DNA of 64,000 bases, taken from positions 192,001 through 256,000 of the forward strand of contig CBDBMG010000001.1 in assembly GCA_965207375.1 (NCBI GenBank). Direction: 5' to 3'. Position numbers and translations under genes: made by a program. Shown here in pieces: positions 39,312 to 46,142 of this stretch. Position 1 is the stretch's first letter. The number at the start of each line of letters is the position of its first letter. The notes under the pieces are model-generated. The model was not told the origin of the DNA and did not search any database. It saw nothing but the letters and a program-made list of their open reading frames with translations. This DNA comes from Nitrosopumilaceae archaeon. GTDB lineage: Archaea; Thermoproteota; Nitrososphaeria; Nitrososphaerales; Nitrosopumilaceae.

Positions 39312-40431
39312 TCATTAAGTACGGTAGTACTTAATAGTAGGGATTGGTAAGAAATTGTACGGCTTCGGGAAAATTTCGAGCTTTAAAAATCAACCTTGCA
39401 ATAGGCTTTACCCGAAAAAACCAGCTGGAATGCATTGGTAAGGCTGTAATGATGCTGTACCTTGGTTAAACGAAACGACAAGTCGAATATTTCGACCTAC
39501 AGCCAACTTTGAAAATTTCGAAATTCACCTGTATTTCGTCTGCCAGCCTGCCAGCCAGCCTGCCAGCCAGCCAGCCAGCCAGCCTGCCAGCCTGCCAGCC
39601 TACCGTAAGACCGGGTTGCGCTAGGTGTAGGGCTCCAGAAATTTCACACAATAAAGGTAATGGCGGCGCATTTACGAAAATCTTATTCCGAAGACGATTT
39701 ACCCACTGCGCCATGGCGATTCCCTTTATCCTTCATTCCTTTCCTTGTTCTTCTTTATTCCTTAGCAAGGTGCGAATTTCACTGAAGGTGACGATAGCCT
39801 GTAACGGCTTCTGCTTATTGCGTCACACAAAAACCTGGCTTGCACGTGATATAATTAGTTACAGTGGTACGATGTTTTCGCGTGTACTTTATTACATCGT
39901 GAACTTCGAGATTATAGCCTTGGACAAATAGCTTTTGCTGTTTTTCGAGCGTTATTTGCTATCACACAGCTGCTTTGCCATGTCAGCGCGTTGTTAATAA
40001 GCGCCTGTAAACAAGCATAATTATTACGTAAGCGCCTGTAACATTTTGTGCGCCTGCTAAAAGATTATTGAATGCTTAGCATGTATAAAAAGTAAACAAA
40101 CTAGAATGATAAAAATTAAAAATTTAAAAAGTAAGTAGGGATTGAACTTTGGATTCAATAGTGCTACAAAAAGTAAGGAAACAAGGAATAAGATTTTGGG
40201 ACGAGAGAACATTCTGGCATGAGATAATTTATAAAAGTTTAATCCCTACGTTTGGCTCACTTCATAGGTTTGCCAAAAGTAGGGATTAAATTTTTATAAA
40301 TTATCTCATGCCAGAATGTTCTCTCGTCCCAAAATCTTATTCCTTGTTTCCTTACTTTTGTAGCACTATTGAATCCAAAGTTCAATCCCTAGCTACTTAC
40401 TTTTTAAATTTTTAATTTTTTATCATTCTAG
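39312..40431 (+). mobile_element. Non-autonomous Helitron-like element with a 5' hairpin, microsatellite and ~330-bp 3' palindrome (copy A)
   Basis: A|TC start, CTAG|T end, no TSD; ATTAAGTAC-GGTA-GTACTTAAT hairpin; palindrome 40101-40431. Confidence 0.85.
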
Positions 40432-40807
40432 TTATATAATCAACTGGTGTCTAATTATATTGGCCAACTCAAGAATGCATTCCTAATATAGGTGGCTAGC
40501 CACATACCGTATCTGCCCCTGAACCATTAAAAGATTAGTCAGTATGGAGTGTAGCTATGACTGCCATGTATCAAAAACTCAAATTATATATAGCTAGATA
40601 TTACTATATACGTACGTAGCTAGATGTATAGATCAACAGTAGGCCATTATTACATTATGCTGGAAGTAAATATATTTACTGCATGAAAATTTGGCCTTTG
40701 TTCATGACACAGAAGGTTAATATACTCTAATAGAACAGTCAAGCAATCATCAGATTGCTGAGTGCTAAACAAAAATTTAAAGTGATGGGTTTATGACAGT
40801 GTTTATT

Positions 40808-41030
40808 TACATACATACATATGTACAATACATACATACCGTATGCATACACACACACACATACTTGCACATACTTGCATACACACACACATACGCACGT
40901 ACACACACACACACACACACACACACACACACACACACATACACACTTGCACACACACACACACACACACACACACACACACACACACATACATACATAC
41001 ATACATACACACACATATACATAGCTATAG
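40808..41030. repeat. Compound (CA)n/(CATA)n microsatellite
   Basis: Directly visible. Confidence 0.95.
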
Positions 41031-44000: not shown

Positions 44001-44678
44001 CCTTCTTTTCTTTCCACAGTTAAGGGGTTTATCACAAACACTACACTATATCCCACGGCTATAAACCTGTGAGAAGGCTTATAATTATATAGCTTGTTTG
44101 ACAGGGATGCAGAAAAAATCATGTCACGATACTCGTAATCAGTATGCACTTCACACATGCAGTCTGCTATACACCAGACTATATATACATATGAAGACAG
44201 GCCATACTGGAACAAAATTGAACAAAAAATTTATTACATTATATATGTGATCTGTTAGACTACACCCACTGAGAATAACCTTCAAAGCATAGTGCTTGAA
44301 TGCCTTCCCTATACAATACTCTCTGTGGTGCTTAGCCCTATTGAAGCACATTTAAATACTGGGCTTCAGTTTATGGCAATATAAATTTTGTCCTACAATG
44401 TCTGCAGTGAATGGAAAAGAATAACAGTAAACTTGAAAAACATACTATGCACCATGTATAATGTCTTGCATGATAAGTAAAATAGACTGTACATGAGCTT
44501 GTGCATGATATTTTTATAGGCACTGGTGATATGGGGTCAGCAGACATTTGCACCGATCGTTCCAACCTTTCCCCCTCCTCCAACCATGAATGCTGGTATA
44601 GTCAAAATATTATTATTTCATTATTTAGTTATAAAAATTGTATTTATAAACATAGGAACACACTCTGGCAATGAATGA

Positions 44679-46142
44679 TCATTAAGTATGGTAGTACTTA
44701 ATAGTAGGGATTGGTAGGAAGTTGTACGGCTTCGGGAAAATTTTACACTTCAAAAATCAACCTTGCAATAGGCTTTACCCGAAAAAACCGGCTGGAATGC
44801 ATTGGTAAGGCTGTAATGATGGTTAAATGAAACGACAAGTCGAATATTTCGACCTACAGCCAACTTTGAAAATTTCGAAATTCACCTGTATTTCGTCTGC
44901 CTGCCTGCCTGCCTGCCTGCCTGCCTGCCTGCCTGCCTGCCTGCCTGCCTGCCTGCCTGCCTGCCTGCCTGCCTGCCTGCCTGCCTGCCTGCCTGCCTGC
45001 CTGCCTGCCTGCCTGCCTGCCTGCCTGCCTGCCTGCCTGCCTGCCTGCCTGCCTGCCTGCCTGCCTGCCTGCCTGCCTGCCTGCCTGCCTGCCTGCCTGC
45101 CTGCCTGCCTGCCTGCCTGCCTGCCTGCCTGCCTGCCTGCCTGCCTGCCTGCCTGCCTGCCTGCCTGCCTGCCTGCCTGCCTGCCTGCCTGCCTGCCTGC
45201 CTGCCTGCCTGCCTGCCTGCCTGCCTGCCTGCCTGCCTGCCTGCCTGCCTGCCTGCCTGCCTGCCTGCCTGCCTGCCTGCCTGCCTGCCTGCCTGCCTGC
45301 CAGCCAGCCAGCCTGCCGTAAGACCGGGTTGCGTCAAGTGTAGGGCTCCAGAAATTTCACACAATAAAGGTAATGGTGGCGAATTTACGAAAATCGTATT
45401 CCGAAGACGATTTACCCACTGCGCCATGGCGATTCCCTTTATCCTTCATTCCTTTCCTTGTTCTTTATGTATTCTTTAGCAAGGTGCGAATCTCACCGAA
45501 GGTGACGATAGCCTGTGACGATTTCTGCTTATTGCGTCAGTGGCTTGCACGTGATATAATTAGTTACAGTAGCACGATGTTTTCGCGTGTACTCGCGTGT
45601 ACTTTATTACATCGTGAACTTCAAGATTATAGCCTTGGACAAATAGCTTTTGCTGTTTTTCGAGCGTTATTTGCTATCACACAGCTGCTTTGCCATGTAA
45701 GCGCGTTGTTAACAAGCGCCTGTAAACAAGCATAATTATTATGTAAGCGCCTGTAACATTTTGTGCGCCTGCTAAAAGATTATTGAATGCTTAGCATGTA
45801 TAAAAAGTAAACAAACTAGAATGATAAAAATTAAAAATTTAAAAAGTAAGTAGGGATTGAATTTTGGATTTAATAGTGCTACAAAAAGTAAGGAAACAAG
45901 GAATAAGATTTTGGGACGAGAGAACATTCTGGCATGAGATAATTTATAAAAGTTTAATCCCTACTTTGGCAAACCTACTGAAGTGAGCCAAAAGTAGGGA
46001 TTAAACTTTTATAAATTATCTCATGCCAGAATGTTTTCTCGTCCCAAAATGTTATTCCTTGTTTCCTTACTTTTTGTAGCACTATTGAATCCAAAATTCA
46101 ATCCCTACTTACTTTTTAAATTTTTAATTTTTATCATTCTAG
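44679..46142 (+). mobile_element. Helitron-like element with 3' palindrome (copy B)
   Basis: Near-identical to copy A; A|TC ... CTAG|T; palindrome 45816-46142; expanded (GCCT)n. Confidence 0.85.
44897..45316. repeat. (GCCT)n tetranucleotide array, ~100 units
   Basis: Directly visible; explains the PACL/AGRQ ORFs. Confidence 0.97.

Follow-up and report, generated by a model that had tools for sequence, protein, structure and literature searches.

Two Helitron-like elements in the DNA analysed here end in a giant hairpin whose loop is turned round between the copies, and we regard this flipping hairpin as a real feature and as a new end variant of HLE2 elements. The DNA is a stretch of 64,000 nucleotides (the window), positions 192001-256000 of C2, one of the four contigs (C1-C4) of an assembly filed under a Nitrosopumilaceae archaeon; C2-C4 (2.14 Mb) are eukaryotic, with dense repeats and immunoglobulin-domain exons, and represent only a small part of the host genome, and none of these repeats is present in C1 (2.16 Mb). 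Both elements lie on the forward strand and belong to one non-autonomous, HLE2-like family, here called family A: copy A, of 1120 bp, spans 39312-40431 and copy B 44679-46142, each starting A|TCATT and finishing CTAG|T, where the bar marks the element's edge. Their terminal palindromes occupy 40101-40431 (arms of about 155 bp) and 45816-46142; folded as single-stranded DNA, the segment 40060-40432 reaches -167 kcal/mol (z = -35), and none of 100 shuffled sequences was as stable. The loops, at 40257-40271 in what we call orientation F (a variant without one G) and at 45971-45986 in orientation R, are reverse complements apart from one base. A preliminary description of the window had reported the limits, strand and ends of the two elements, their lack of a target-site duplication (TSD), the palindromes of about 330 bp and the inverted loops, and had called the elements Helitron-like; our analysis agrees with it on all these points.

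The conserved end of copy A (39312-39344) consists of the TCA start, a short hairpin at 39314-39335 with a 9-bp stem and a GGTA loop, and the 9-nt motif AGTAGGGAT at 39336-39344, which recurs in both palindrome arms and thus forms a subterminal inverted repeat; the reverse copies of the motif bear private changes in copy A and are intact in other family A copies. At the opposite end, the inner boundary of the palindrome is the mirror image of the outer CTAG|T junction, T included. The body between them contains a (GCCT/GCCA)n microsatellite, at about 39542-39600 in copy A, and its expansion into a (GCCT)n array at 44897-45301 explains why copy B is longer by about 340 bp. Insertion without TSD is demonstrated by empty paralogous sites reading A|T, found for copy A at C2:28591 and C2:293513 and for copy B at C2:343117; the window block 41500-53500, with several diverged paralogues on C2 (84-99% identity), is a source of such sites. 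Among 24 full-length copies, the target is A|T in 21, T|T in two and A|C in one. Copy B represents the same insertion as C2:32964-34043, the two being segmental twins within a duplicated block with identical loop orientation. The eukaryotic contigs hold about 57 matches to the family A body, and a further window copy (32368-33165, forward strand) belongs to an older subfamily; its TCA end is intact, and the palindrome end is absent. At C3:437011-439025 and at C3:646617-648246, two family A copies stand tail to tail with (TA)n between them, and fragments of 20-61 nt from the TCA end, with a precise A|TC junction, occur alone or in tandem ahead of a full copy (C2:120555, C3:326883, C4:603041 and C4:432232); these short fragments may mark the initiating end.

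The design is not confined to one family. A census found 121 long palindromes in C2-C4 and none in C1, 42 of them belonging to family A and 34 to a second family, B, these two being the largest; family B has the same architecture, a different sequence and a body of its own. Its representative in the window (49180-50835, reverse strand, 1656 bp) starts A|TCAAG, with a short hairpin carrying a GATA loop followed by the motif GAGGCCAA, and ends TTAGCA|T; its terminal palindrome (49180-49591) has arms of 194 columns with one mismatch around a 20-nt loop (49376-49395), and an empty paralogous site is found at C2:36933. Families A and B and F2, which with F4 is a relative of family A, all begin with A|TCA and a short hairpin of core AC-G(G/A)TA-GT, and all have a family-specific motif of 8-11 nt that is repeated in the arms of the long palindrome. 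The motif follows the hairpin at element position 24-27 and returns in the arms in A, B, F2 and a Rep-helicase (RepHel) element, and the inner palindrome boundary mirrors the terminal junction, including the T supplied by the target, in A, B, F2, F4 and RepHel. Across families the terminal palindromes measure 330-420 bp. As this design is common to families unrelated in sequence (A, F2, F4, B and RepHel), both arms are likely to function in transposition.

The RepHel element, at C2:191416-183268 (8.1 kb, just upstream of the window), is bracketed by the same end design, and a relative 96% identical to it at about C3:311-321 kb codes for Rep, PIF1 and UCH and has a palindrome of 351 bp at its end. 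Both copies are broken or incomplete, the one on C2 lacking most of Rep and the one on C3 having no start that we could find. Pfam identifies Helitron_like_N, PIF1, DUF6570 and UCH domains in the C3 element and no AP endonuclease domain in its four open reading frames (ORFs); Rep homologues bear the same Pfam markers. DUF6570 is described as a marker of HLE2, and UCH as enriched in its subgroups c and d (PMC11417382); since RepHel carries both, we place families A, B and their kin among the non-autonomous rolling-circle elements of the HLE2 group, on the Helitron2/Helentron/proto-Helentron side, although for family A this marker criterion would hold only through the architectural link. By end sequence RepHel is linked to family B alone; CTAG is found in family A only, and B and RepHel finish TAGCA and TGAGA. 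The Rep-helicase element with matching ends that the preliminary description had proposed to look for thus exists as regards architecture, but the 2.14 Mb yielded none whose end sequences are those of family A itself. Two further RepHel elements, at C4:378-386 kb (with OTU) and C2:422-426 kb (with an HLE1-like motif), were considered as partners of family A and rejected for want of an A-type start; the palindromes neighbouring them are separate insertions or remnants. The former (C4:378836-385674) is broken, has an OTU domain and showed no long palindrome of its own, and a TC-plus-hairpin sequence near C4:387800 may be its start. The latter is part of a nest (C2:421011-427099) in which an HLE1-like RepHel lies between the arms of a family B palindrome, itself within a family A microsatellite. 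At C3:329858, a family B copy starts inside the loop of a RepHel-type palindrome, and loops may be insertion hot spots.

Within family A the two loop orientations are equally common. A scorable loop was found in the adjoining palindrome for 45 of the 57 body matches and none for the other 12; in the curated set, with a twin removed, 31 independent insertions comprise 16 F and 15 R, and two older subfamilies (70-80% identity in the adjoining body) also contain both, at 5:2 and 3:1 before twin removal. Orientation is random on the body tree, with nine changes against 8.9 in shuffled data and eight against 7.7 in a second run; the trees are poorly resolved (13-16 open forks), and the absent lineage signal is weak on its own. 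The loop is also a hot spot for insertions and deletions: its 16 nt exist in at least five variants in copies whose bodies differ by a few percent, and four of the five multi-copy variants occur in both orientations. Loop variants do not follow the body tree (nine changes against 9.8 shuffled, p = 0.33), one variant with two changes being present on both sides of a starred branch, while a site in the outer arm does follow it (three changes against 6.3, p = 0.007). The ratio of about 1:1 that the preliminary description had suggested as a check is therefore seen in family A and not in family B: there the 34 palindromes, after setting aside six unorientable or loopless ones, one ambiguous one and two twins, are divided 19:6 (p = 0.015), and F2 is divided 6:1. 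Two young family B clades are uniform, 13 of 13 copies being alike, and the older B lineages are mixed. The 13 youngest family A copies, by comparison, are divided 7:6, which differs from the two equally young B clades (Fisher p = 0.015) in a comparison whose groups were picked after looking and whose copies are not independent. Contigs from four read runs over 38300-44850 are short-word contigs, and among the pieces listed none spans the element; end-to-start joints seen in read contigs had extra letters or short sides and were set aside.

The palindrome arms keep a second record. In family A, 46 of 47 private arm substitutions affect one arm only, and half the arm-to-arm divergence, 0.0095, is close to the rate of private changes in the body, 0.0088, measured in 26 copies. 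The arm statistics exclude one twin and one copy whose arm is truncated, and the body comparison excludes four of 30 copies because their bodies are not homologous. A subfamily variant at arm position 48, on the other hand, is found in both arms in nine of its 11 carriers, and variants shared within family B are symmetric in 62 of 90 instances. One-armed private changes next to two-armed subfamily variants indicate that symmetry is gained in donor lineages and decays in resident copies, and the arms seem to be re-symmetrised mainly in the mobile lineage. In agreement with this, all five segmental twin pairs with intact loops have kept both orientation and asymmetries. Chimeric centres in three copies (C4:631481, the RepHel copy at C2:183 kb and C3:753958) reveal template switching at the centre, and the centre is exchanged between arms and between copies, something not predicted by strict terminal resolution alone. 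One family B palindrome, at C3:371333-371772, has no body at all: one of its sides is joined directly to the element's TCA end (first 25 nt), the other to a target T.

To explain these patterns, we tentatively favour, with a confidence a little short of even, folding back of the element while it is being mobilised, accompanied at the palindrome centre by template switching or strand exchange. An HUH Rep would nick the strictly conserved A|TCA end and the helicase would peel off one strand, upon which the palindrome could fold into a long stem with the other terminus at its base; the terminal 3' end, left paired beside the single-stranded body, could then serve as primer for second-strand synthesis. 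During this mobile stage the arms, identical to each other, and those of other copies would be able to stand in for one another as templates, such that mismatch correction and template switching could make new mutations symmetric, and a switch or a strand exchange across the centre could turn the loop round or swap it between lineages. The flip would then be a frequent by-product of the fold-back intermediate, arising at a family-specific rate and not obligatory in each cycle. The end that serves as the origin we can only infer; truncation counts are uninformative about polarity (53 intact TCA ends against 37 palindrome ends in A, 42 against 48 in B). Under the Helitron2 convention the other strand would be the one to read, and the giant palindrome would be an enlarged 5' hairpin. 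Change in the mobile lineage is favoured by the one-armed private changes, by the concordant twins, and by young B copies that are uniform while young A copies are mixed; fold-back exchange and inversion by the host may both operate. Only somewhat less probable, in our estimate, is a host-driven change in place, with the loop inverted after insertion by replication template switching or by repair of a centre break from the other arm or another copy; the palindrome would then be the HLE2 end structure and its flip uninformative on the transposition intermediate. In ordinary hairpins, template switching is known to invert the loop (10.1101/2023.04.19.537475), the centres of long palindromes are documented as unstable (PMC8701086), and many centres here are damaged. 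Loop variants that ignore the body tree, when the outer-arm site follows it, fit such a process, and the mixture in older B lineages combined with uniformity in young ones is what an age-dependent process predicts; one twin pair has a symmetric change acquired after duplication. Yet orientation is already mixed among family A copies that differ by no more than about 1%, when B copies of like age, with longer and purer arms, are not mixed; a host process of a general kind should have affected the two families alike. Furthermore, the arms of resident A copies diverge at the neutral rate, with a single symmetric change among 47 private ones, and copy B and its twin retain both loop and asymmetries.

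Several observations weigh against the fold-back exchange that we favour. Private substitutions are present in both arms in 10 of 41 cases in family B. Arm mismatches in family A are not in deficit near the loop (31 of 1191 in the inner third, 13 of 1127 in the outer), which in itself speaks for fold-back exchange, but they are in excess there, and other copies replacing the centre in place could also account for this. The twin test is weak, as four of the five pairs are less than 1% apart and the fifth has 98.6% element identity, and a sixth pair (C2:26108 and C2:394537, flanks 95.8% alike) has a substitution in both arms of one twin and a deleted loop whose remnant fits the opposite orientation slightly better, a case of conversion in place and perhaps also of inversion. 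Many centres have unique deletions or insertions, as expected from the fragility of palindromes; the overall difference in orientation between A and B is not significant (p = 0.095); the contigs yielded no autonomous partner bearing the ends of family A, whose link to RepHel is thus architectural; and the fold-back intermediate itself is something that we infer. The preliminary description had suggested a hairpin-ended or fold-back intermediate by analogy with parvoviruses. In a true rolling-hairpin scheme of the parvoviral kind, the snapped-back end would prime a hairpin-closed duplex, Rep would nick the mirror site at the inner palindrome base, the hairpin would be copied out, and every cycle would invert the whole palindrome. 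Flip and flop forms are a product of replication of adeno-associated virus (AAV; PMC7671332), the ratio in family A is 1:1, the inner boundary reproduces the terminal junction with its T in A, B, F2, F4 and RepHel, and the uniform young B clades could derive from single donors. The body-less palindrome on C3 fits the use of both mirror sites, although a nested insertion into the inner A|T and a later deletion would explain it too. We nevertheless consider rolling-hairpin replication of this kind improbable: the orientations are biased in B and F2, the loop variant should stay with its lineage and yet the two-change variant crosses a branch of the tree, and no clear set of inherited arm asymmetries switches sides with the loop. 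Of the three causes that may underlie the flip, parvovirus-type resolution is not the one with the best support, in view of the bias in B, that variant and the arm conversion in a twin pair. It is rather unlikely, though less so, that the elements are an HLE2 lineage with a parvovirus-like end in the wider sense, having a self-primed second strand, resolution by Rep at the inner mirror site and hairpin-ended linear DNA; if that were true, this would be a rolling-hairpin transposon whose cycles could each be read from the orientation of the loop. Sequencing and assembly have difficulty with palindromes (PMC8701086), and loops could have been placed at random between near-identical arms, but we give an assembly or consensus artefact very little credence, because randomisation is not seen in family B, whose arms are longer and purer (two clades, 13 of 13 copies alike), twins assembled separately agree, and the arm asymmetries that are kept require that the assembly resolves the two arms. 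The idea that the palindrome is a separate miniature inverted-repeat transposable element (MITE) beside a Helitron body, which the preliminary description had named for checking, is hardly credible at all. The near-perfect inverted repeat is of MITE size and family B includes one body-less copy, but the palindrome has a body on one side and is free on the other in 25 of 28 complete A-type and 29 of 31 B palindromes, the remaining three A-type cases being mis-calls of the pattern (an older-subfamily body flank in two, a chance flank in one); it also lacks a TSD, and its arms carry the motif of the far end.

Outside these contigs, the end pattern has no matches in viral contigs and only three, of chance-level length (24-31 bp), in 150 related prokaryote genomes. 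Relatives of the Rep protein were found at seven metagenome loci and one genome locus, and no long palindrome was seen in the five of these eight that were scanned, on contigs of 2.5-11 kb that probably stop short of the element ends. In the literature searched, no title or opening of an abstract mentions Helitrons that end in long palindromes or have loops that flip; such ends may be recorded in Repbase, in subscription papers or in the supplements of PMC11417382 and PMC4067079, and searches for short inverted repeats would probably mis-annotate them as MITEs. The sources cited here do not explain how transposition of HLE2 elements is initiated and terminated or how their second strand is made, the experimental model being Helraiser, an HLE1 element. 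In this respect the palindrome is useful as a built-in two-state marker: the loop has two states, the arms record conversion, and counts of loop orientation can tell inversion in place from a fold-back intermediate. If the hairpin-primed route is true, it links Helitron transposition to parvoviral replication; otherwise, the roughly 76 palindromes of families A and B in 2.14 Mb form a dense natural assay of palindrome instability.

The surroundings of the elements call for brief mention. The window also contains an element of the canonical type (57228-57727, reverse strand), with a TC start, a 3' hairpin and a CTAG end, to which the preliminary description had linked family A. The similarity of the 5' ends is visible, the first 25 nt resembling the family A start without the first hairpin arm, but beyond this BLAST finds nothing in common, and the kin of family A are in the HLE2 group; the element has only three copies in the contigs, whose shared flanks show them to be a single insertion that was duplicated. 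Several immunoglobulin-domain exons lie at 47323-57219, one of them preceded by a 15-bp tandem array (about 54365-54800) that forms an in-frame Tyr/Asp/Cys repeat, and a tandem repeat with an 804-bp period occupies 59478-61385, with 100% identity across the matched 300 nt. In all, a prokaryote genome bin includes animal contigs amounting to about 2.14 Mb. Their host was probably a sponge, as judged from a homologue of the Rep protein labelled Dysidea avara, with 62% identity across 46% of the query.

Among known systems, the HLE2-reverse elements (FoHeli3-5) and proto-Helentrons, as described in PMC11417382, PMC4067079 and PMC5148889, resemble the elements in layout. Common to both are a stem-loop that precedes the left subterminal inverted repeat when the element is read along the RepHel ORF, insertion without a TSD, DUF6570 and no AP endonuclease domain found by Pfam in the ORFs scanned; with proto-Helentrons the elements also share the A|T target and the CTAG end (PMC4067079). 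In contrast to what is described there, the far end here is a palindrome of 330-420 bp with several copies of the motif, the start is TCA and not TT, and the loop exists in two orientations. Read on the other strand, the elements also resemble Helitron2, Helentron, HINE and DINE-1 (PMC3627910, PMC4067079): the 3' repeat is 24 nt from the end, directly before the hairpin, in line with the Helitron2 rule of a 3' inverted repeat 20-30 nt from the end (PMC3627910); the 5' repeat pairs with sequence downstream; there is a central microsatellite; and reversed ORF orientation is known in some members. They depart from that group, as described there, in that some 33 nt, instead of 0-2, separate the 5' repeat from the end, its hairpin is 155-200 bp long, terminal T-runs are lacking and the target is A|T, where T|T is given as usual for Helitron2 and Helentron and A|T for proto-Helentron; the C3 RepHel ORFs, unlike those of Helentron, lack an AP endonuclease domain. 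The TC start, the A|T target and, in family A only, the CTAG end recall canonical Helitrons (HLE1), whose model Helraiser needs double-stranded donors and is described with double-stranded circles (PMC5876387). However, the short hairpin about 10 nt before the end is missing and one is found at the TCA end instead, a subterminal inverted motif and a long palindrome are present, the partner transposase has HLE2 markers, and sister families end TAGCA and TGAGA. With the hairpins of parvoviruses and AAV, as described in PMC7671332 and PMC5714925, the elements have in common a self-complementary terminus, an HUH endonuclease and two loop orientations, but they are integrated transposons with one long palindrome, a PIF1 helicase of superfamily 1 (SF1) and sister families in which the orientations are biased.

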